From a virus (taxonomy: Duplodnaviria > Caudoviricetes): a stretch of DNA of 64,000 nucleotides. Shown here piece after piece: positions 49,276-63,903 of this stretch (position 1 is its first letter; each line of letters starts with the position of its first letter). The stretch covers positions 50,227 through 114,226 of the IMG/VR virus record IMGVR_UViG_3300009095_000011. One strand, given 5' to 3'. The notes beneath the pieces are model-generated. The model was not told where the DNA came from. It made no database searches and saw only the letters and a list, made by a program, of their open reading frames with translations. The translations under genes were made by a program, and so were the position numbers.

Positions 49276-50289
49276 TTAGGTAAGGTATTTCCAAACAAGA
49301 CCATGAAAAACTTTTGGATAATTAGTAATATAATGCTTTATACACTTTTTACCAAATTGTTCTTTGGCTTGCTTTAAAGAAATCCATTCATGAATCAATT
49401 CATTTGTGTCTGGATTAAATGCACCTACCCTCTTATGATTTGGATTATTATCACCTATTTTTTCTAACCATTTATATCTCGAATTACTTTTCCTTTGTTT
49501 GGTTTGGGGAGAATTTCTAACCTCTATTTGCATCTGTCTCCATTCTGGATCATTCCATAAATTATTCATTACCTTTGCTTGATCTTTCTTTCTATCTTCA
49601 TTATGTTGCCTCATTTTATCTCTAAACTCAGGATCTTGCCATCTTTTCTTCATCCATTCTGAACATTTCTTTAATCTTTCAGGATCATTGGCAACATTCT
49701 TATTCCACCATTTTTTATATTCTGAATCAGAAAATCTTTCTTTTACAATAGAAGAAATCTTATTTCTAAATTCTTGTGTTTTCCAAAGTTCTCTGTGTCT
49801 ATTTGATGCATTTTCTAACCACTCTTTGGATTTCCTAATCTTCATTTGTTTCTCAATATAATCAGAATCTTGCCATAATTTTAATACATTTTGTCTATTT
49901 CTTTCTATTTGTTCCTCATTGGCTTTCCATCCTATAGTTCTGCCAGCAGTTGGCGACAAATTATAACATTCGGTTACAAATCTACCCCTACCTGTTTGTA
50001 TATATATTTGTGCATCAGCTATATCATCAAGATAAGATTGCTCTCTTATTATTAACTGAAATTCATCATCAATAATTTCAAGAATATTAAATTCAAAATT
50101 ATCTGCACCATATTTATTCCAAGCATTTTGAAGATATCTATTAACATGATCATTTCTTTCTAATGCAGTCCTATGTTGACCAAATCTATCACTAAAATCA
50201 TTAGTTGATCCTATATAAAACTTTTTATTGATCTTATTTTCTATACAATATATTCCACCCATTAGTACAAAATAAAGCAAAAATATCAA
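49276..50289 (-). CDS. GIY-YIG homing endonuclease with helical W-x-D-x-E repeats; likely start MGGIY at 50262
   Basis: GIYCIEN..FYIGS..R..H, LQNAWNKYG, REQSYLD, YNL; repeats LWQDSDY/LWKTQEFR/RWQDPEFR/LWNDPEWR. Confidence 0.85.
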   Translation of the reverse strand: MIFLLYFVLMGGIYCIENKINKKFYIGSTNDFSDRFGQHRTALERNDHVNRYLQNAWNKYGADNFEFNILEIIDDEFQLIIREQSYLDDIADAQIYIQTGRGRFVTECYNLSPTAGRTIGWKANEEQIERNRQNVLKLWQDSDYIEKQMKIRKSKEWLENASNRHRELWKTQEFRNKISSIVKERFSDSEYKKWWNKNVANDPERLKKCSEWMKKRWQDPEFRDKMRQHNEDRKKDQAKVMNNLWNDPEWRQMQIEVRNSPQTKQRKSNSRYKWLEKIGDNNPNHKRVGAFNPDTNELIHEWISLKQAKEQFGKKCIKHYITNYPKVFHGLVWKYLT

Positions 50290-50343: not shown

Positions 50344-51864
50344 TTAAGAAGGCGCCGTCCATCTACCAATATTCCTGAACCTTACTACCTTTCTTGGGCT
50401 TGTAAGCCAATGAGTGAAATAAAGAAGGATCATAAACCTATACGCAGGTGAAACTATCGCCAAGTCCAATTTAAGTAATGGCGCAAGTTGCTTAATTTCA
50501 AACGTATTAGGAGTATCACTAATAAATGCCTGTTGAGTGTTAGCAATAAAGTGATTTCTATCTCTTACTTTGCCAGCAGCGCCACCATCAAATCCATTCG
50601 TTACCTCAGTAGTAGATACCTTGAAGATAGGATAGAATTTAGCAGTGGTATAAGCAGAAGCGTCCTTTTCAGTCCTATAAATTACATATCCAGTTGCAGG
50701 ATTTGCTCCACCACCAGAAGTAAAAGTTAAATCTACAGACTGGCCAGCAGTTGGTGATATAGAAGAAGTATCCAATATAGTCATTGCACTTTCGCCATAT
50801 CTATTGATTGCCCTCACTCCATACCAATATGCACCAGCATCACCAGCTGCAAATTCACTTGCAGCACTATCACTTGCAGCAGCAGGAACGCTACCAGCTA
50901 CAGGAGCAGCAGGAGCTTTGAGACTATTTGCACCTTCATTGTATGCTACACCTTTAGATTCTTGCAAGAAAATGTCATGCATTAAATCAACATCTCCAAA
51001 AGACATTGTTACATGCTTAGGATAGCTAATGTTTGTTTCAACATTGTATCCACCATTATTGCCACCTAAGATAATTCTTTGTTTTTGATAGTAGTCTTTA
51101 CCAAAATCACTAAGAACAACAGGAGGGGCAAATAAATGAGTTGCTTGTCCAAAGTTTTCAAGAATAACTCGTCCAGCATCTTCAATAACTTCTTGAGTTA
51201 GAGATGCTCCTTTAAGGTCAACTACTACTTCATCATTATAATAAGAAGTAAGGTTGGTGTTGATTCCTAATTGATGTTGTTTGTATACACCATTGATTTC
51301 AGTTGAGATGATATTTTCATCTCCAAATGCCAATGCCCTGTTTGCTTTTCTAAGCAACCACATTGTGCCATTGTTGATTTCCCTCTGAATTACATCACCA
51401 TGTGCTGATCGTACTAAGGTCATAGGGTGCGTTACGGCCCTGGTTACACCATAGTACTTCACTTTCTCAGCACGTCTGATGTAAGTCGAATCTTCTTCTT
51501 CCGGCAATTCACCTTCTAAATAAGATCCACCTCTTTCAACACCATAGCTGGAAAGTTGATTGAATTCTTCTACTGTATTGAATGCAGCAGATTTAGGGAA
51601 AGCTCTCCATAAACGAATATCACTGTCGCGGAAAGTTAAAAGTTTTAAAGTCCTCTCAAGACTTTCAGGTTTTAAAGCAGCACCCTGTCCAGGTATTGCA
51701 CTATTTACTGATGCACCACCAGTAATAGATCCAGCAGACAAAGCCTTGTTTAATTCTGCAAGTGCTTCAGCTGTTTGTGGAGTTTGATTTAATGCATCTT
51801 CACCAAACCCTTGAGAGCCGTGTGAGAAGTCTGCATAATCTCCTAAAGAAATTCCTAAACTCAT
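50344..51864 (-). CDS. Major capsid protein (Herelleviridae/SPO1-like)
   Basis: GAALKPESLE..LK.LT, AFNTVEEF, EEDSTYIR, QLAPLLKLDLA; FN3-like insertion. Confidence 0.88.
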   Translation of the reverse strand: MSLGISLGDYADFSHGSQGFGEDALNQTPQTAEALAELNKALSAGSITGGASVNSAIPGQGAALKPESLERTLKLLTFRDSDIRLWRAFPKSAAFNTVEEFNQLSSYGVERGGSYLEGELPEEEDSTYIRRAEKVKYYGVTRAVTHPMTLVRSAHGDVIQREINNGTMWLLRKANRALAFGDENIISTEINGVYKQHQLGINTNLTSYYNDEVVVDLKGASLTQEVIEDAGRVILENFGQATHLFAPPVVLSDFGKDYYQKQRIILGGNNGGYNVETNISYPKHVTMSFGDVDLMHDIFLQESKGVAYNEGANSLKAPAAPVAGSVPAAASDSAASEFAAGDAGAYWYGVRAINRYGESAMTILDTSSISPTAGQSVDLTFTSGGGANPATGYVIYRTEKDASAYTTAKFYPIFKVSTTEVTNGFDGGAAGKVRDRNHFIANTQQAFISDTPNTFEIKQLAPLLKLDLAIVSPAYRFMILLYFTHWLTSPRKVVRFRNIGRWTAPS

Positions 51865-52240: not shown

Positions 52241-54076
52241 TTACTGAACCAATGTTATTCCTTTTTCTTTGAACTTATTAATCATACCCTGCCCCACTTG
52301 TCCGGTTGATTCATAAGTTGCTATTTCATTAGCAAACGCAAATTCGTTGCCATACCCCTTTCTTATATCATCGCTATTCCAATCAATCATTGAATCAGCT
52401 TTTGAAAGAATCTGTGCTTTATGCTGAGTTACTGACAAGGAGGTTCCTTTATTTAATTCATCTTCTTGTCCCTTTTCAATGAAACTTTTTGTAATAATTG
52501 ATTTTCTACCTTGAGATTTATTTTCAAGCTCTTGTTTTTCTTGTTCAGATTTAAACAGCTTATTTTTTAAATCTTCATTCTGTTCCAAGATTGCCTTATT
52601 GATCTCTCCTATTGCGCTGAACTTTTCATTAAATTGATCTTGCATTCCTTTGATGAGAGTTTCAATACCACTAAAGTCTACAATAGGAGCAGTAATTTCT
52701 TGTGATTTTTCAATTGTTGCCTGTGGTTTGATCTGAGCTTCTTTCTTAGCTTTAAGATCAGCAAGAGATTGTTCGGCTTTTAAAATTTCATCATCTATGT
52801 TTTCAGTTACTTCTTCTGACTTTTCAATTTCGCCCCCACCTTCTTTATTCTCATTAACAACATCCTCAGACTTTTTTACTTCTCCACACATGCCGTAAGC
52901 CTTTTCCATATCTTCATCTTTTGAATCCTTATAGTCATCGCTTTCTTTCATTGCTTTGAAGATATCTTCTTTAGTCATACCTTTCTCCATATAACTTTTC
53001 ATAGTAGATGCCATTTTTTCAAGCACTTGTTCTGCTCCACCTTGAGTTTTTTGATCAAGTGAAGGCATACCACCTTTTTGTAAATTTTCTGTAGATTGTT
53101 GAGAAAGGATTTCTAATGTATTGAAAGCTTTTTGTAATTTTTCCTCAGTGAGTTCAGCCATTGTATCATTTTGACTTTTCTGAAAGTATTCGATGTAAGT
53201 GTACAATTGCTTTGCTGAGTCTATTGTTACATGGTCTATATTGTCAAAAATATAGTCGTAAACTTCGGACTTGCTTAAATTTTGGTTAAATTTATCACTT
53301 TTATTTTTAATAAAAAAATTTTTCTTTGATTTTTTTTGCTTTTCTAATTCAATCACATCACTTTCGAGAGATTCTTTTCTCAAAGGTGCTGCACTTGTAG
53401 TATCCATTGCTTTATCTATTTTTATTTCAAAGTCTTTGGATACTGTTATTCTATTTCCATTTTCATCTGTGATATCAAGAATGTATTGAGGGTTGCCACC
53501 ATTGGCAGAATGGGATTTGGATACATCTGGTTGTGGTTGCTCTATTATAGTGTCATATTGCAGTTCTTCGTCATCTTGATAAGTTGCACCTTTTGTTATT
53601 AGATTGGCCCAAGTATTACCATTCACGGGCTGATACGTGAGCGCAACGCCAGTAAGCTTACTTCTTTTGATTTTACGAGGATCAAGTCCATCTCTTTCAA
53701 GTGCTCTACCTTCTATTGACATAGCAAGGCGAAGTCTGCCATTGTTTTTCTTAATAGCATCTTCTAACTGAACAAATTTTTGAACACTTTCTAATTCTGG
53801 ATATAATCTACCTTTGAGATATATGCCATCTTTTTTAGCGGCACTTTCTGTTATCTCTCCTAATATGCCAGCAGAGCCCTTGATGTGATTATCATTAATA
53901 ATAAGGAAGGAACTTAAATCTGCTCCTTGGGGATCAAGCATTTCTTCTTGAGAATCTAAATCAGGACTTGAAGCTTTTCCTTCAACTATTACTTCTTTTA
54001 TTTTGCCATCTTTTCCCTTTTCTATATGTACAGGAAGAAAGAAACGAAATTTATCTTGAGATTGAACTTGATTCAC
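52241..54076 (-). CDS. Prohead protease fused to scaffold-like region
   Basis: EGKASSPDLDSQEE, DNH, MSIEG, VALT..PVN..TWA protease motifs, then a long charged coiled-coil region. Confidence 0.85.
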   Translation of the reverse strand: MNQVQSQDKFRFFLPVHIEKGKDGKIKEVIVEGKASSPDLDSQEEMLDPQGADLSSFLIINDNHIKGSAGILGEITESAAKKDGIYLKGRLYPELESVQKFVQLEDAIKKNNGRLRLAMSIEGRALERDGLDPRKIKRSKLTGVALTYQPVNGNTWANLITKGATYQDDEELQYDTIIEQPQPDVSKSHSANGGNPQYILDITDENGNRITVSKDFEIKIDKAMDTTSAAPLRKESLESDVIELEKQKKSKKNFFIKNKSDKFNQNLSKSEVYDYIFDNIDHVTIDSAKQLYTYIEYFQKSQNDTMAELTEEKLQKAFNTLEILSQQSTENLQKGGMPSLDQKTQGGAEQVLEKMASTMKSYMEKGMTKEDIFKAMKESDDYKDSKDEDMEKAYGMCGEVKKSEDVVNENKEGGGEIEKSEEVTENIDDEILKAEQSLADLKAKKEAQIKPQATIEKSQEITAPIVDFSGIETLIKGMQDQFNEKFSAIGEINKAILEQNEDLKNKLFKSEQEKQELENKSQGRKSIITKSFIEKGQEDELNKGTSLSVTQHKAQILSKADSMIDWNSDDIRKGYGNEFAFANEIATYESTGQVGQGMINKFKEKGITLVQ

Positions 54077-55063: not shown

Positions 55064-55115
55064 TTAAACATCTAATTGATAGTATAAATATACAACTTAT
55101 ATTTTAGATGTGCAA
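55064..55115 (-). promoter_or_regulatory. Repeated promoter + leader (copy 4), overlapping the ARH stop
   Basis: TTGCACATCTAAAATATAAGTTGTATATTTA...ATTAGATGTTTAA. Confidence 0.75.
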
Positions 55116-55955
55116 GCTATCAACAAACTTTTTTATTATTTTTTTTGCATATTGTCCATTGAGAATCTTATCAATATCACATACATCTCCATAATAAAAT
55201 CCCGACAACGAACCTGTGATTGCTGCTACTGTATCTGTGTCATAGCCTAATGATATTGCTTTAATGATTGAGTCTTTGTAATTATTAGTATTGAGAAAAC
55301 ACCACAATGCAGCTTCTAAAGTAGTTTTTACAAATCCTTGTGTATCGAGATCACTTTCTTTCAATTGGTTTATTTTCTGAAACAAACAAGAATCTAATCG
55401 AATTAACGCATCCCATTTGCCTAATCCACTCATAAGTAAATGAAAATAATCAACATACTCAAAACAAGTACTTATTGATATTGTGTGATCATGGGTTATT
55501 GAAGAAAGTTTCATTATTACAGAATGTAGTAAAAATGAATCCATTCTATAAGTATATAGGGCAATTGGAAGCATTCGCATTAGTGATCCATTGCCATTGC
55601 TATTAATGTCAGTTCCTGGCCTATTATCTCTTAATGCTTGTAAGGTTGTGTTTCCTATATCGAATACTACATTATCTGATGTATATTTGGCATTATTAAG
55701 CCACTGGCAGAACTTTTTCTTAATGTCTAATGGATTAATGCCATTTTGTTCATTAATTGAATCTATGGTGGCTAAAACAAGTGAGGTGTCATCTGACCAA
55801 GATCCTAATGGTTGATTATGCGAACCACCAGAAGTTAGTTGTATTGGGCGCTTTATTCTTTCGGGCGGTATAAACTCGTAGGGGACACCATAAATGTCCC
55901 CTACTATAAATCCTAAAAGAGCATCGGTTGCTTTATTCTTTAGATTTCTTTTCAT
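55104..55955 (-). CDS. ADP-ribosylglycohydrolase (DraG/ARH family)
   Basis: GDIYG, WSDDT, GNGSLMR, SITH, DTDTVAAITG. Confidence 0.92.
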   Translation of the reverse strand: MKRNLKNKATDALLGFIVGDIYGVPYEFIPPERIKRPIQLTSGGSHNQPLGSWSDDTSLVLATIDSINEQNGINPLDIKKKFCQWLNNAKYTSDNVVFDIGNTTLQALRDNRPGTDINSNGNGSLMRMLPIALYTYRMDSFLLHSVIMKLSSITHDHTISISTCFEYVDYFHLLMSGLGKWDALIRLDSCLFQKINQLKESDLDTQGFVKTTLEAALWCFLNTNNYKDSIIKAISLGYDTDTVAAITGSLSGFYYGDVCDIDKILNGQYAKKIIKKFVDSLHI

Positions 55956-56039: not shown

Positions 56040-56255
56040 TTAATCTATTTTTCTATCGTAAGATAATTTCTTCATCCACCCATTATGCTTAAATAACACA
56101 TTTCCAGATTGCATGGATGTTGTCACATTCGTAACCGCACCCTTATCAATCACCCCTTTATAATCAAATTCTAATTCGTCTTGTGATTTGGTGCTAATCA
56201 CATCGAAAGTATTGAAAGAATTCGTTGTGACTGTGAATAATCTGTAAGTTTCCAT
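56040..56255 (-). CDS. Hypothetical protein
   Basis: 71-aa ORF after promoter copy 5. Confidence 0.55.
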   Translation of the reverse strand: METYRLFTVTTNSFNTFDVISTKSQDELEFDYKGVIDKGAVTNVTTSMQSGNVLFKHNGWMKKLSYDRKID

Positions 56256-56271
56256 TTTTCTTTACATTTAG

Positions 56272-56322
56272 TTAAACATCTAATTGATACTTAAATATAG
56301 CTCTTTTATTTATCAATTGCAA
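56272..56322 (-). promoter_or_regulatory. Repeated promoter + leader (copy 5)
   Basis: TTGCA-N18-TATATTTA...ATTAGATGTTTAA. Confidence 0.7.
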
Positions 56323-57328
56323 GCAAATCACTATATTTTTGTAGATCATTTTCATTAATATTTCTTACAAAAAGGTCGATTAGTTGTGATTTTGAAATGT
56401 ATGGCTCTCCTGATAGTGCAATAATATCGTGTTCGCTTTTTGAAATTTGTTCACTCACTTCTTCAAGTTCAATTTCAAGTGCTAATATTTGTCCCTTGAT
56501 TGCTCCTGATTTACCTTTTTCAGCTTTTATTTTCTTGATTTTAAATTGAGTTCCGGATTTGAATAATATTTCCTTTTCTCCTGGAAAATCAGATAAGCCA
56601 GATACATCTTTGCCAGTTTTTGAAATAACTTTATATTTTATATCACCTGGAAAATTATTACTTGCTATTGAATTATCTTGACTTGTTGACAAGAAAGCAT
56701 CCATTTGAATATTTCCATCTTTTTTGGCATTAGTATATTCTTCATAGATTTCATTAATATCTTTCCAAGATTGAGTTGATCTATATACTTCGCCCTCATG
56801 ATTGTCTAATTTATCAAGTACTTCATTAAGCATACTTGCATATTCTTTTATTTCTTCGCTTGGATTTTTCTTCATCAATCCCTGATTAACCGGCATATAT
56901 CCACCTCCAGTATAATTAAATAAAGTCGCTGCATGCTCATCTGATATATCTTCTCTTTTTAACAAAGGGAATCTGTCGTAGTCTTTCTTTTTGCGAGCTA
57001 TATTGATAACTCCCATTGATCGATCTATATCTTCATGAACAGTTCTGATTCTTTCAAATCGTTCATTGAGATTGTCTTGTTGTTTTTGTTCTTGCCCCTT
57101 ATTTTCATTAACGGCTTCTTCTTTATTTCTCCTATCTAATTCTTTATGTGCATACTCTCTAATTTTAGGATCACTGGATTCTTTTATTTGACGCTCTAAA
57201 TCTTGTCGTGAAGCATTTTTAGCATAATCTTGTAACTCTGTATCAGAATATGATTTTGGTTGCTTAGAATCGTTATTTTGCCCTTGTTTTGCATTTGATT
57301 GATCTTGCTGTCCATTACTACCATATTT
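56306..57328 (-). CDS. VIP2/C3-like (R-S-E) ADP-ribosyltransferase; in-frame continuation of the upstream zeta-ParB ORF
   Basis: YTGGGY..VN, VYRS, FLSTS, GEKEIL (ExE); frame is open from 57328, right after the TAA at 57329-57331. Confidence 0.85.
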   Translation of the reverse strand, partial: KYGSNGQQDQSNAKQGQNNDSKQPKSYSDTELQDYAKNASRQDLERQIKESSDPKIREYAHKELDRRNKEEAVNENKGQEQKQQDNLNERFERIRTVHEDIDRSMGVINIARKKKDYDRFPLLKREDISDEHAATLFNYTGGGYMPVNQGLMKKNPSEEIKEYASMLNEVLDKLDNHEGEVYRSTQSWKDINEIYEEYTNAKKDGNIQMDAFLSTSQDNSIASNNFPGDIKYKVISKTGKDVSGLSDFPGEKEILFKSGTQFKIKKIKAEKGKSGAIKGQILALEIELEEVSEQISKSEHDIIALSGEPYISKSQLIDLFVRNINENDLQKYSDLLAIDK

Positions 57329-59182
57329 TTAACCTACTCGTTTTAGTTTTCTATTTTGTGCTGTGTCTGCATATACTCCACTTCGAGCTTTAATAATATT
57401 ATATTGTTGTTTTGCTTGATAGTATTGTTCAGGAGTTATGAGGTCATCATTGAAAGCTTTTTGAATAGTTTCGAAAGATTCATCTTCTTCGCTTTTAGTG
57501 ATATCATCATTTCTTGTTATTTTCATTAAATTCAATCTCCTGATGGCTTCTTTTGCATCCAAATGGATTTTGTAACAAGGAACTTCCATTTCTTCGTCGA
57601 TCTCACAGAGGGCACAAATTCTGTGATTTCCGTCAATGATATAGTTATCTTTACTTACAAGGAAGCGAGTTAGTTTGTCGGGATCAATGTTTTCAAGTAT
57701 TTCGAGTACCTTATCTTCATTGATTTCATTTTGAGCAAATTTAAGATCACTGAGACTTATATTTTCTTTTGTTACTTTGCTGTCTGGACTTTTGCCCTGA
57801 AAATGAAGAATTACATCATCGATGTTATCGCTATCTATTTGAGGCATTGTATCTCTTGTTCTATTAAGAGTATTTAGGAGGTATTTTTTATATTTGAAAT
57901 CTCCTGTTTGTGATGTATCAATTGCCTTTAGTAATTGACAATGATCTTCAATACAAGAATAGAGATCATTCTCAGCCTTTTTTAGCTGCTGTACTTGATT
58001 ATATTTGTCTTGGAGATATGATTGTTCAATTTGATCTATTCGAGTGTTTAAGCGCTTTAAAATAGCTTCATTTGTATTGCCTTTGGTTAGATCATTGTAT
58101 TGCACTAATGCTTCATTGTAATTTTCCTGCAATGATTGTCCTTTTTGCAATAAATCCGCAATAATATCGCTTTTGGTTTTTAATCTGATTCGTGAGATAT
58201 CTATATCAGTTAATTCTTGACCAGTATCTTCACTAATAGGATTTATTGATTTTGAGAAAAGTTGTCTGAGTGAATTTATAGCTTTCTGTAAAACAGATTG
58301 TTTCTTTATAATATCTTCCACTATTATATTTTTCTTATTTTTAAATTCAATATAAAGATCTTCTCTATATACTTCACTGCTATCAAGAACTTTTATAGGA
58401 TCATTGCCTAATTCAACATTATTATCATAAAGCTCATAATCATCAACTAAATCTTTAATTTCTTCAAATGTTTCTGTGCTACCTCTATGTCCCTTAACTA
58501 ATATCTCATCGGGGACATATCTGCCACTTCCCCCCTTCCCGTCTCCATTGCCTAATGCTCTTAGCTTGGCCCTATTTAATGCATCTTCAGCATTAACATT
58601 AACACCAACTAATTTTATATTATATCCTTTCTTTTTGAGAGTATCAATTAATTCTTTAGCTTTCTCTTTATTACCAAGAACAGCATCAAATATAAAATTT
58701 CTTCCTTGATTAATTATTTTGTCTTTCGCTACATATCCTATATCAGAAGATTCTTCATGAACCCTATTGGCAGCAAGAATAACGTCAGTGTGAATGAAAT
58801 TTTTATATTCAGGTATTGATTCTTTTATATCATCTACATTTAAAGTACCAAAATTTACACCATACTTAGGTTTTATAAATTTATTTACAACAGTAGATTT
58901 GCCTGATGCTGCACCTCCTAATAATAAAATTGCAGTTGGTTTTTCTCGTGGCAATGGCTTAGGACAAGATGATACTATATTAGTAATGATTTTTTTATGA
59001 AGCTTTACTCTTTCAGGATTATAATGACCCGATTCATTAATGTGTCTTTTTTTAGAAGAATCAGAATTTCCCCTAAGATGCTCCTTGTATTCTTGTAGAG
59101 ATACATAAACAGTCGTAACATAACTTTTGCCACTTCTGTTTACTAATTTCTTTATTGGAATTAAATTGCTACTCTTCGGCAC
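57329..59182 (-). CDS. Polyvalent protein: zeta-toxin-like P-loop kinase + ParB-like domain
   Basis: GGAASGKST, NVDDIK, FIFDAVLG, GRYVP (zeta/PezT-like); AQNEI, VSKDNYIIDGNHR (ParB-like). Confidence 0.85.
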   Translation of the reverse strand: MPKSSNLIPIKKLVNRSGKSYVTTVYVSLQEYKEHLRGNSDSSKKRHINESGHYNPERVKLHKKIITNIVSSCPKPLPREKPTAILLLGGAASGKSTVVNKFIKPKYGVNFGTLNVDDIKESIPEYKNFIHTDVILAANRVHEESSDIGYVAKDKIINQGRNFIFDAVLGNKEKAKELIDTLKKKGYNIKLVGVNVNAEDALNRAKLRALGNGDGKGGSGRYVPDEILVKGHRGSTETFEEIKDLVDDYELYDNNVELGNDPIKVLDSSEVYREDLYIEFKNKKNIIVEDIIKKQSVLQKAINSLRQLFSKSINPISEDTGQELTDIDISRIRLKTKSDIIADLLQKGQSLQENYNEALVQYNDLTKGNTNEAILKRLNTRIDQIEQSYLQDKYNQVQQLKKAENDLYSCIEDHCQLLKAIDTSQTGDFKYKKYLLNTLNRTRDTMPQIDSDNIDDVILHFQGKSPDSKVTKENISLSDLKFAQNEINEDKVLEILENIDPDKLTRFLVSKDNYIIDGNHRICALCEIDEEMEVPCYKIHLDAKEAIRRLNLMKITRNDDITKSEEDESFETIQKAFNDDLITPEQYYQAKQQYNIIKARSGVYADTAQNRKLKRVG

Positions 59183-59342
59183 TATTATTTTCTTCTATAT
59201 TATCATCATCATTTAGCCACTCCTTCATTTCATCATCATAAAAATCCAAATTCTTCTCAGAAATTAAATCAACCTCTGGCAAATTTAAATTTACGATATC
59301 CCTATCAAGTTCTTTATCGGTAATATTTATTTTCTTAGACAT
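59169..59342 (-). CDS. Small acidic protein (57 aa), candidate antitoxin; start corrected to MSKK
   Basis: D/E-rich; overlaps the zeta ORF start; promoter motif at 59354-59363 just upstream. Confidence 0.5.
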   Translation of the reverse strand: MSKKINITDKELDRDIVNLNLPEVDLISEKNLDFYDDEMKEWLNDDDNIEENNSAEE

Positions 59343-59364
59343 TGTTTTTATTTTGTAAATATAC

Positions 59365-59598
59365 TTATTTATTAATAAATGATAAAATTTCATTGGCAAA
59401 TTTTTGCAATTCACCCTCTATAACATCAAAATCTGAATCCTTGAATTTATGTACATGATTAGAATTCATTTTATTCATTATTGATGACCTTGTTAATCCT
59501 TTTGTTTTAATACCCAAACAAAGCCCCGATAAGTTTAATCGGGGATCATTGAGGATTTTTTTAATTTTTTGTTCTCTATTCATAATTAATAATACCAA
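59365..59598 (-). CDS. Small HTH-like DNA-binding protein
   Basis: LNLSGLCLGI..LTRSSIMNKMN..KF; XRE-like pattern by eye. Confidence 0.45.
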   Translation of the reverse strand: MVLLIMNREQKIKKILNDPRLNLSGLCLGIKTKGLTRSSIMNKMNSNHVHKFKDSDFDVIEGELQKFANEILSFINK

Positions 59599-60185
59599 CT
59601 TCTATAATGAGTTTCTCCTTCTGAATGCTTACAAGCAAATCTCACTTCACTTATTTTAATACCCCATTTGGTCACTTTTCTTCTATAAGTCTCATCGCCT
59701 ACAAAAGAATCCTTAATGGGAACAACATATTCACAATCATGACCTTCTGATCCCTCAACTCTTTCATAACCTATTTTACGAAGAATTGCATAATGAGTGG
59801 ATATCTTTTCTACTACCTGATAACAATCAATATTGATTTGCTCATATCCCCATGAAGCAACAAATATATCCCCAACTTCAAATTTAGGCACAAAAGCTAA
59901 TTTTTCTGCTCTTTGCTTTTCTTTAGCTTCCCTTATGGCTTTGTTTCTTTCTATTGATAAATTTATCCTCTCTTGAGCTTTATCCCAATTAGGATAAATA
60001 TAATTGACATAGGGGTCTTTTTGACTTCCTTGCCAAATCAATAAATGAATTGGATAAGAATCTTTTCTCGCTCCAACATTATCACCAACTAAAATTTTTA
60101 AATTTTCCTCTTCTTTAACATAAGAAGCATTTAGCCTTTTCTTGAAATACTCAATGTTTGAAGCTTGTCTTTCTAAATTTTTCAT
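59586..60185 (-). CDS. Hypothetical phage protein
   Basis: VGDIFVASWGYEQ.NID.YQVV motif. Confidence 0.6.
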   Translation of the reverse strand: MKNLERQASNIEYFKKRLNASYVKEEENLKILVGDNVGARKDSYPIHLLIWQGSQKDPYVNYIYPNWDKAQERINLSIERNKAIREAKEKQRAEKLAFVPKFEVGDIFVASWGYEQINIDCYQVVEKISTHYAILRKIGYERVEGSEGHDCEYVVPIKDSFVGDETYRRKVTKWGIKISEVRFACKHSEGETHYRSWYY

Positions 60186-60201
60186 TTTCTTTCTTTTTCA
60201 A

Positions 60202-60252
60202 TTAAACATCTTTTCAACACTATAAAGATAAACAAAAAAGTTTAAAGTGCAA
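60202..60252 (-). promoter_or_regulatory. Repeated promoter + leader (copy 6)
   Basis: TTGCA...TATCTTTA...GATGTTTAA. Confidence 0.6.
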
Positions 60253-60272
60253 AATTTATTGCACTTTATTTT

Positions 60273-60653
60273 CTAATAACTTGAGAATCCCTTAGTGTGC
60301 CTATAATCCACAATCACATTGATATTATTTTCATTGATATACTTATCTAATGCAAAATCAAAATCTGTTTTATATCTTTTGTCAAAAGAAAGATATCGAC
60401 TTTTGGAGCATTTTTCATCTACTTTAACAAAAGCATCCATAGGGTCAATATGATTGATGCCAGCCAGTACAACAATGTATGGATTGTATGATTTCATTAT
60501 CCTTCTGGCTTTCCTTTTACCTTGTGGAATATAATCAATATAGGGAGCGTTATTATATTGGGCATATTTTCTTGTTCCATAATTCAAAATAGTACCTTCA
60601 ATTTTTACAACACTTCCTAAAAGATCTTCGGTTAAATAAATAGTAGCTTTCAT
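60273..60653 (-). CDS. Hypothetical protein
   Basis: 126-aa ORF; YAQY..A...PQGKRK. Confidence 0.6.
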   Translation of the reverse strand: MKATIYLTEDLLGSVVKIEGTILNYGTRKYAQYNNAPYIDYIPQGKRKARRIMKSYNPYIVVLAGINHIDPMDAFVKVDEKCSKSRYLSFDKRYKTDFDFALDKYINENNINVIVDYRHTKGFSSY

Positions 60654-60670
60654 TTTCTTATCTTTTTTAG

Positions 60671-60714
60671 TTAAACATTTATGTAAATATAAACTAAAAT
60701 GTTTAATTATCCAA
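60671..60714 (-). promoter_or_regulatory. Repeated promoter + leader (copy 7)
   Basis: TTG-N20-TATATTTA with TTAAACAT...ATGTTTAA inverted repeat. Confidence 0.6.
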
Positions 60715-60750
60715 ATTTGCAGCGATTATTTTTAAAGTTTACCACATAAA

Positions 60751-61014
60751 TTATTTTTCTTTTCTACGAATCATTGCTGCCTCTCTTTTAATTTTATTTG
60801 GCACAGAAGAGGCAAATGCTCTATATAGAAAAAATGCTTTATCATATTCTGATTTGGCAGCCTTATACTCAAATGAATTTTTAGTTTCATCATTAACTAA
60901 TCCAAATTCATTTCTATTGCCAGATATAACCTTCTTTAATTTTTGATCTGCATTATTAAGCACTTGATCATAAATGGCCAATTGTGCATTATATTTTTCT
61001 GGTGTCATTTTCAT
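60751..61014 (-). CDS. Hypothetical protein
   Basis: 87-aa ORF. Confidence 0.55.
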   Translation of the reverse strand: MKMTPEKYNAQLAIYDQVLNNADQKLKKVISGNRNEFGLVNDETKNSFEYKAAKSEYDKAFFLYRAFASSVPNKIKREAAMIRRKEK

Positions 61015-61021
61015 CTTTTAT

Positions 61022-61321
61022 TTATTTATCTGACCATTGTAATTCAACAAAAGAAATATTCCCACCGCCAGTAAGGTCTTTGTAATACTTAGCACCAATG
61101 CTGTCAATTACAAATCCTTTAGGGTGTTCCATAGCTTCATCGTGATATAACCAATGACCACCAGCAGAAAATATTAACTTTCTGCCTTGCAATCCAATTA
61201 ATTCCTGAAATCCTCTTGACTCAATTACTTCAGCTTCCTTAATGGCCTTTTGAACATCAATTGGCAATTCATCGAAATTAAGAATCTCTTTAATGTCATG
61301 TGAAAAATCAATAATTGTCAT
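61022..61321 (-). CDS. Hypothetical protein
   Basis: 99-aa ORF after promoter copy 8. Confidence 0.55.
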   Translation of the reverse strand: MTIIDFSHDIKEILNFDELPIDVQKAIKEAEVIESRGFQELIGLQGRKLIFSAGGHWLYHDEAMEHPKGFVIDSIGAKYYKDLTGGGNISFVELQWSDK

Positions 61322-61339
61322 CTCTTTAAATTTTAATAG

Positions 61340-61390
61340 TTAAACATCTAATTATATATCAAATATAAACATAATTGTTTAAACTTACAA
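61340..61390 (-). promoter_or_regulatory. Repeated promoter + leader (copy 8), exact TAnnTTTG -7 element
   Basis: TTG-N20-TATATTTG...ATTAGATGTTTAA. Confidence 0.7.
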
Positions 61391-61393
61391 ATA

Positions 61394-61421
61394 AAAAAAG
61401 AGGAAATTTTTATTTTCCTCT
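61394..61421 (-). terminator. Intrinsic terminator
   Basis: AGAGGAAA-loop-TTTCCTCT followed by a T run. Confidence 0.65.
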
Positions 61422-61428
61422 AAATATT

Positions 61429-63354: not shown

Positions 63355-63903
63355 TCATTTTAAATGCTCTCTGTAATCAATACCTTGTTTCATTCTGTAA
63401 TAATGAAGGACATATAAATCCTCTATTAATCCTATTCGATAGCCTGATTTTAATACCTGACTACTGAATACATTATCTATTCCCAATATTGTTCCTCGTT
63501 TAGTTTGCTCTACAAAGGGAATTTGTTTCCATAGCCATTTGGAAAATATCATTACATGACCTGATATCAACTGTTTTAGCTCTTTAACTTTACCCTTATT
63601 CTCTATAGCATTTCTTTGCGCTATTTCCCAATGATGAATAATGTTTGGATCTTCACTTATTTTGCCTTGATACATTTGTTGAGGATTTTTAATCCTAGAA
63701 GCATAACAAGTGAAAAGTTGATATTGAGGATTGTTTTTTATTGCAGCTTCAATTATGTGACCATAATTTGAATTAAGGAACATTACATCTCCATCTATGA
63801 GGCAAATAAAATCATCATCATTGGGTACAATAGAACATAGGTCGTTATAGGCACGACCTAGTAATTTATCAGTTGAATATGGAGAAGAATAATAGATGTT
63901 CAT
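63355..63903 (-). CDS. GT2-like glycosyltransferase
   Basis: LGRAYN, CLIDGD (DxD), GIDN, VLHY. Confidence 0.7.
   Translation of the reverse strand: MNIYYSSPYSTDKLLGRAYNDLCSIVPNDDDFICLIDGDVMFLNSNYGHIIEAAIKNNPQYQLFTCYASRIKNPQQMYQGKISEDPNIIHHWEIAQRNAIENKGKVKELKQLISGHVMIFSKWLWKQIPFVEQTKRGTILGIDNVFSSQVLKSGYRIGLIEDLYVLHYYRMKQGIDYREHLK

Follow-up and report, generated by a model that had tools for sequence, protein, structure and literature searches.

An in-frame TAA codon interrupts a zeta-ParB-ADP-ribosyltransferase frame at a conserved module joint in a soil myovirus

In this work, we analyzed an interrupted gene in a 64,000-nucleotide stretch of a tailed phage genome (hereafter the window; positions 50,227 to 114,226 of the IMG/VR virus record IMGVR_UViG_3300009095_000011), which forms the final 64 kb of a 114,226-bp record that is 100% complete according to CheckV. 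The source is a soil phage with ~31% G+C and every gene on the minus strand. Since its genome encodes a tail sheath together with the major head protein, the prohead protease and other virion proteins, it is a myovirus, roughly 114 kb in size. The gene in question lies directly upstream of the prohead protease and major head genes, with the tail sheath gene further along. It codes for a zeta-toxin-type kinase and a ParB/sulfiredoxin-like (ParB/Srx) domain, followed, behind a single in-frame TAA, by a conserved spacer and an ADP-ribosyltransferase (ART). Coordinates of these and of the neighboring features are collected in Table 1.

Translation of the minus strand from 59182 to 56306 yields 617 residues, the TAA at 57331-57329 and then 340 open codons that end with a second TAA at 56308-56306. 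An earlier note on this DNA, made from the sequence alone, had described the whole as a single 958-codon frame with one interruption, and the count (617 + 1 + 104 + 236 codons) is exact by translation. The upstream part ends ...ARSGVYADTAQNRKLKRVG (...NRKLKRVG) and the downstream part begins KYGSNGQQ..., both in one frame, which led us to reject a frameshift or bypass. A relative, P0007, begins at the position equivalent to the GTG start of the upstream open reading frame (ORF). Past the stop, no in-frame ATG, GTG or TTG occurs until the ATG at 57016, after 104 codons, and an open run of this length has a chance probability of ~1e-4, whether estimated from base composition or by shuffling the spacer 20,000 times. 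An ATG formed by the K-Y-G codons just past the TAA is out of frame and hits a stop after ~46 codons. Two open segments of at least 150 codons parted by a single stop occur at three places in the 114,226-bp genome. Two of these, with a start 0-6 codons past the stop, are ordinary neighboring genes, and 57331 alone lacks a nearby start.

Table 1. Features of the interrupted gene and its surroundings (window coordinates).
Feature	Coordinates	Strand	Basis
617-codon ORF with GTG start: zeta-type kinase, helical region, ParB/Srx-like domain, first 20 residues of the linker motif	57332..59182	minus	translation, domain matches
Zeta-toxin-type P-loop kinase, residues 77-245, Walker A GGAASGKST	58448..58954	minus	Pfam PF06414, E 2.9e-29
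ParB/sulfiredoxin-fold domain, probably DdrB-like, DGNHR, residues ~427-560	57503..57904	minus	phrog_2859, E 3e-22; AlphaFold/Foldseek
Linker/leader module of ~45 residues ending KARSGVYaDtaxNRKLxRVG-Q-KYG; the stop replaces Q	57320..57466	minus	motif scans
In-frame TAA where relatives have CAA/CAG (Gln)	57329..57331	minus	translation, homologs
Spacer: 104 open codons without ATG/GTG/TTG; conserved module ..YSDxELxxYAKNASxxDLERQIKESSDPKIRE.. after the motif in relatives	57017..57328	minus	
236-codon ORF from first ATG: R-S-ExE ADP-ribosyltransferase and conserved C-terminal tail	56306..57016	minus	
Block of ~3.1 kb missing from the 95% relative L006: several small ORFs, plus the zeta domain joined in frame with the ParB protein	58272..61428	minus	blastn vs L006
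ART cassette of ~1 kb absent in L006: spacer end, ART, tail, 71-residue ORF	56053..57098	minus	blastn vs L006
71-codon ORF within the ART cassette	56040..56255	minus	no family match
ADP-ribosylglycohydrolase (DraG/Tri1-type)	55104..55955	minus	Pfam PF03747, E 5e-53; phrog_6572, E 5e-65
Prohead/head maturation protease, N-terminal domain and long C-terminal extension	52241..54076	minus	phrog_1028, E 7e-34
Major head protein	50344..51864	minus	phrog_752, E 3e-74

Besides the IMG/VR record, the same TAA occurs in an ENA assembly (114,218 nt) and in the Logan assembly made from SRR5690606 (15,189 nt), at a depth of ~11x, and one more protein record, the partial P0014, stops after the same RVG. Exact look-ups with P0014, and with the 32-residue edge fragment that a short contig with the TAA should yield, found no record. 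As the three assemblies and P0014 may stem from one sample, their agreement excludes an assembler artefact but not polymorphism within that sample. Over 6.7 kb, position 58948 alone separates the ENA and Logan assemblies from the window: their plus strand has C in place of the G of IMG/VR, corresponding to Arg79 to Gly in the zeta domain; this difference reflects a polymorphism or a second sample.

Homologs were sought with the read-through translation (X at the stop) among 5.8 billion proteins. P0003 (860 aa, 77% identical across the junction) reads ...NRRLKRVGQRYGSSG... (RVGQRYG), and P0005 (703 aa, 42%) reads ...NRKLNRVGQKWGSD... (RVGQKWG) and continues into an ART with the same C-terminal tail. 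In the closest relative, P0013 (396 aa; encoded at locus L006 of a Logan contig of 105 kb), 95% of 393 aligned residues are identical; it has RVGQKYGSNEQQ, and its codon is CAA, one C-to-T change away from the stop, as the earlier note had proposed. Other copies of the motif in the relatives' proteins have Q in nine of nine cases (eight relatives). Every junction-bearing relative thus has Gln (CAA or CAG) where the earlier note had predicted it, and the ancestral state was therefore one continuous ORF with Gln at this codon. A scan of IMG/VR with the back-translated spacer and ART protein found no relative.

Nor are the homologs split around a non-conserved spacer, the outcome that the earlier note had named as speaking against a single frame: the relatives are continuous and the spacer is conserved as protein. 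An exhaustive HMMER search found spacer and ART of this type contiguous in P0017, P0019, P0025, P0029 and P0096. Compared with L006, the spacer has a non-synonymous divergence (dN) of 0.040 and a synonymous divergence (dS) of 0.30 (dN/dS 0.13), which indicates purifying selection over most of the history separating the two. From these comparisons, the 104-codon stretch is a conserved protein module and not a mere spacer. It matches no Pfam or NCBIfam model, and DUF5661, found in P0006 and P0011, has no match to the window spacer. A zeta-ParB protein that stops just short of the motif occurs naturally in one relative (P0004; 590 aa, 44% identical), and a 617-residue zeta-ParB product would therefore be a viable unit. 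The idea that zeta is separately encoded upstream in relatives was rejected; the upstream 349-aa gene of L004 is unrelated to the window's zeta region.

The domains named in the earlier note were checked against profiles and structures. The kinase matched Zeta_toxin (PF06414) with 102.4 bits against a gathering cutoff of 22.3 and has the P-loop GGAASGKST. The ART matched ADPrib_exo_Tox (PF03496; E 4e-13, 49.6 bits against a cutoff of 23.4) and PF01129 (E 1e-8). Its catalytic motifs are intact (YRST at 78, STS at 110, EKE at 147) and align with those of Tre1, a type VI secretion system (T6SS) toxin that is its closest solved relative (6dre/6drh; E 2e-8), and its C-terminal tail (LSGEpyISKsqLIDLF..) is common to P0003 and P0005. 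Both identities are confirmed by these profile matches and catalytic motifs. The ParB assignment is supported by fold and active-site motif but not by the Pfam ddrB-ParB profile (PF18763), which gave 15.8 bits against a cutoff of 27.6 (E 0.016), and a sequence search of this region against PDB found no match. An AlphaFold model of the region, built on seven homologs, had a predicted local distance difference test (pLDDT) value of 75. Its best Foldseek matches were pNOB8 ParB-N, sulfiredoxin and ParB-CDP (probability 0.99-1.0, E ~1e-3), and the top 20 were all ParB-N, Noc, sulfiredoxin or the ParB-like Atu1540 (probability 0.95-1.0, with E only ~1e-3 and a template modeling score of ~0.3). The DGNHR sequence, an active-site motif of the DGxHR type, is invariant in the homolog alignment. 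Taken with the model, it leads us to accept membership in the ParB/Srx superfamily, as the weakest of the domain calls, and the domain is probably DdrB-like.

The stop falls near the end of a linker or leader module in which ~20 conserved residues (..NILKSFG..DIEKA..) precede a 24-residue motif. IUPAC scans found the motif in 26 IMG/VR loci and 42 JGI metagenome loci, and a relaxed pattern found it in 42 loci (together L007-L032, L035-L076 and L079-L104, many of them common to more than one scan), with unrelated flanks. In many single-cargo ORFs it lies 25-70 residues from the start, in the setting of a leader. It also stands between the modules of long polyvalent ORFs, sometimes twice (P0003, L007, L061). 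The motif is absent from Pfam and NCBIfam models, a literature search on motif strings found no relevant paper, and the pLDDT of the region in the AlphaFold model is below 50, as expected for a linear motif. It is an apparently undescribed, strongly conserved module and a candidate packaging/capsid-targeting or processing signal before each cargo. Other short repeated peptides (..AIDPNGKWVTIDGRHVHLN.., ..GDISQKTGLKKVAAGKWVDPKTGK..) occupy the module joints of P0006, P0007, P0009 and P0010, replacing NRKLxRVGQKYG.

Comparison with close relatives points to exchange of whole cassettes around this joint. L006 (10001-11191 compared) has neither zeta nor ART. A variant in run X3 has zeta and lacks 56045-57044, with 57045 joined to 56044 via six bases that supply a stop in the frame as read. 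Effector cassettes thus come and go on either side of a ParB-linker core that stays constant. Other effectors occur on the same scaffold in P0006-P0011, namely NUDIX, 2H/Acb1-like phosphoesterase, topoisomerase-IB-like, ART and zeta domains; a possible Tpt1-like region in a distant relative was below the cutoff. Polyvalent proteins that combine DdrB-like ParB with many other effector domains, encoded beside virion genes, have already been described (PMC5512222). Such proteins are recognized by two or more effector domains, and the 617-residue product has zeta and ParB/Srx; an ART is added to these only in relatives, or here if the stop were read through. A place next to virion genes, here just ahead of those for the prohead protease and the major head protein, is likewise described for the polyvalent class.

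About 350 nt downstream of the ART is an ADP-ribosylglycohydrolase gene, a possible candidate for a reversal or immunity partner of the ART as judged from its family and position. The glycohydrolase is also kept in the ART-less L006 (11276-12121) and is absent in L004, whose polyvalent protein has an ART. The glycohydrolase therefore need not be immunity to the phage's own ART, and it may serve another purpose, e.g., countering host ADP-ribosylation. A GIY-YIG homing endonuclease is encoded immediately after the major head gene (window 49276-50289), and one lies at the equivalent place in the 42%-level relative L004 (7090-8097). Upstream of the polyvalent gene in the relatives is a run of glycosyltransferase, sulfotransferase, methyltransferase and Stealth-like genes (window 63355-63903; L002 1-7000; L006 2500-9500), which may be a surface or DNA modification cluster.

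Across the whole genome, a Shine-Dalgarno (SD)-like sequence precedes only 3 of 103 ORF starts. The locus had no blastn match among cultured phages and plasmids, and tblastn against cultured phages gave distant single-domain matches only, e.g., to Bacteroides DAC phages, haloviruses and Vi1-like Salmonella phages. Bacteroides, Tenacibaculum and Chryseobacterium phages are among these few, and together with the SD-poor starts and the absence of tRNA genes they make a Bacteroidota-type host, with SD-independent initiation, likely.

We consider that the TAA is probably an ordinary heritable nonsense allele, arisen from CAA, that cuts a polyvalent effector of the head module short at a joint between modules, leaving a Tre1-like ART detached. 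The ancestral protein would have comprised a variable N-terminal effector (here the zeta-type kinase), a helical region, the DdrB-like ParB/Srx domain, the 45-residue linker and the conserved spacer module, and at its C-terminal end a variable effector (here the Tre1-like, Arg-type ART) and the conserved tail. It would be packed in the head and delivered with the DNA, as is thought for polyvalent proteins in general (PMC5512222). The CAA codon for Gln midway through the motif would in this lineage have become TAA, and ribosomes would obey the new stop. The main product would then be the 617-residue zeta-ParB protein, similar in extent to the relative's natural 590-residue one, with the full-length fusion at no more than trace amounts. 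The ART would be uncoupled. It would be silent, or expressed weakly from the ATG inside the frame at 57016, where initiation is plausible because the genome hardly uses SD sites; the neighboring ADP-ribosylglycohydrolase would be able to reverse its modification. The allele may possibly silence a toxic ART, as suggested by the earlier note.

Several observations weigh against so simple a history. The 340 downstream codons contain no second lesion and the ART catalytic residues are intact, which fits a very young mutation but equally fits continued translation. Other studies (compost 2025, invertebrate gut 2022) supplied three runs (X2-X4) with contigs that are 92-97% identical here and span 57331. 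The differences listed for these runs have no row for this position, but do include others, elsewhere, that two or more of the runs have in common. These differences seem to be all those with a summed depth of at least ~9.2, including 57241, which is common to all three runs and L006. Should the table be complete in this sense, at most one of these runs has another base at 57331, which indirectly suggests that at least two diverged ART-bearing populations keep the TAA, and the TAA may be a long-lived allele, not a fresh defect. On the same reading, diverged ART-bearing populations would share TAA, as against CAA in ART-less forms (L006, perhaps X3).

Recurrence of the stop elsewhere weighs in the same direction. 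L008 (IMGVR_UViG_3300002462_000017), whose leader aligns to the 57320-57466 stretch of the window, has an in-frame TAA at the identical Gln codon (..NRKLARVG-stop-KYG..; L008/L034, G001:C1 565-567, minus strand), with a 47-residue leader before it and at least 188 open codons behind; the sequence downstream has a homolog in L103 (E 2e-13). L073 (398-400) has an in-frame TAA eight codons earlier (..EDTP-stop-NRKLGRVGQKYG..) with 202 open codons behind, and its relative L074 has Glu at that position. All three stops are TAA followed by A, with a Gly or Pro codon before. When TAR was sought at the Gln codon with relaxed flanks, only L008 was found, vs. ~35 copies with CAR in IMG/VR. A scan for stops at other motif positions gave one, L073, and the effect is thus not confined strictly to the Gln codon. 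In the 426 kb of motif loci, no further protein-like frame with an interruption was seen. Such recurrence in unrelated phages is unexpected for random damage; we regard it as a lead and not a result, as it rests on two or three cases found by searching with the motif itself, too few for a firm claim.

Among the other explanations for the stop, a sequencing or assembly error, which the earlier note had raised, or a genome-wide reassignment of TAA is very improbable. This is a metagenome-assembled genome and its three assemblies probably share one sample, but they agree at the codon. TAA is the main terminator (74 of 103 ORFs), a single frame is interrupted and the 114-kb genome has no tRNA gene. 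Leaky or programmed readthrough, in which a near-cognate tRNA-Gln would insert Gln at the UAA so that a little full-length zeta-ParB-ART protein, a few copies per virion, accompanies the main 617-residue product, would fit a frame kept open over 340 codons, the first 104 without a start and in a spacer that looks selected. It would also fit the TAA that recurs within the same motif in L008 and L073, with its shared flanking A and Gly or Pro codon. To our knowledge, programmed UAA readthrough has no precedent in a tailed phage, which counts against this explanation. Near-cognate tRNA-Gln can indeed read UAA (PMC7026636), and any readthrough would therefore restore the ancestral residue, but UAA is the stop least prone to it, with a basal level of <1e-4 (PMC7026636). 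Moreover, no stable RNA structure was found 3' of the stop (a 120-nt fold was not more stable than those of shuffled sequences, z = +0.77), no suppressor tRNA is encoded by the phage, and the stop is not conserved across the family, the nearest relative having CAA. The programmed readthrough suggested earlier thus found no positive support, and we judge readthrough of either kind to be quite improbable here.

A stable split is unlikely, but has more to recommend it. Here the TAA would be maintained, the 236-residue ART and tail would be translated alone from ATG 57016 and paired with the ADP-ribosylglycohydrolase in the manner of Tre1/Tri1, and the 312-nt spacer would be an undecayed relic. 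The ART domain is complete in the 236-residue ORF (Pfam profile positions 14-181 of 196) with its catalytic motifs, stand-alone ARTs of 150-330 aa are common among the homologs, and in this SD-independent genome ATG 57016 is no worse than other starts; the adjoining glycohydrolase, Tre1 as closest solved relative and the indirect hint of a TAA kept in other ART-bearing populations point the same way. However, an untranslated gap of 312 nt is unusual in a tightly packed genome, and this one is still open, protein-like and under apparent purifying selection. A close homolog of the window ART was not found as a separate gene (none at 187-595 aa besides the window's own), and the glycohydrolase, being kept by the ART-less L006, need not be its partner. 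A more speculative combination, which we hold to be doubtful, treats the motif as a delivery leader for each cargo and the in-frame TAA as a recurrent, selected 'valve', leaky or toggled by mutation, that limits a dangerous cargo such as the Tre1-like ART to a very low dose or turns it off in some hosts. It would explain the TAA within the same 20 codons in three unrelated phages, the stop possibly kept in all ART-bearing strains with CAA in ART-less relatives, and the intact frame behind the stop.

The nonsense allele that we favor belongs to a locus where entire enzyme cassettes (zeta at one end, ART at the opposite end) distinguish 95%-identical strains, and where a single nonsense codon can detach one of them. 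As such, it is a clear example of how polyvalent effector proteins evolve. The linker module, if it is a packaging or processing signal, could serve for loading proteins into capsids, and the recurrence of TAA, if not due to chance, would point to an unknown way of dosing or switching toxic cargo.

Known systems resemble this locus in part. Readthrough of a UGA stop gives rise to the A1 minor coat protein of phage Qbeta. There, as here, the frame runs through a single stop and two products with a shared N-terminus are possible; in contrast, the window has UAA, no stimulatory element and a stop that is not conserved in the closest relative. Alt of phage T4 is an ADP-ribosyltransferase that is packaged in the head and injected. 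Like Alt, the enzyme found here is an ART of the R-S-E type in a myovirus, and its delivery with the DNA is suggested by its position in the head module. However, the searches made found no detectable sequence relationship between the two, and the window's ART is the C-terminal module of a larger protein, behind a stop. Closer in sequence is Tre1, the T6SS ART toxin of Serratia, which is paired with the ADP-ribosylhydrolase immunity protein Tri1; the R/STS/ExE residues align and a DraG/Tri1-family gene lies nearby. Unlike Tre1/Tri1, the window's genes stand in a phage and not a T6SS context, no PAAR domain is present, the hydrolase is kept in an ART-less relative, and the pairing is a putative one suggested by adjacency and family.

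The nearest parallel is provided by the polyvalent proteins of phages, such as DdrB of P1 (Iyer, Burroughs, Anand, de Souza, and Aravind, 2017, J Bacteriol; PMC5512222). The earlier note had singled out a zeta, ParB and ART polyvalent protein as notable; the novelty of this was partly overstated, the class being known (PMC5512222). These proteins are likewise multi-effector polypeptides that include a DdrB-like ParB domain, their genes likewise lie beside those for virion structural proteins, and their domains are likewise shuffled as cassettes between close relatives (PMC5512222). The protein described here differs from them in that no zincin metallopeptidase domain was found, in its conserved 45-residue leader/linker joint and in its TAA interruption. 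We regard it as a further member of the class, of which the motif and the recurrent TAA are possibly the new parts.

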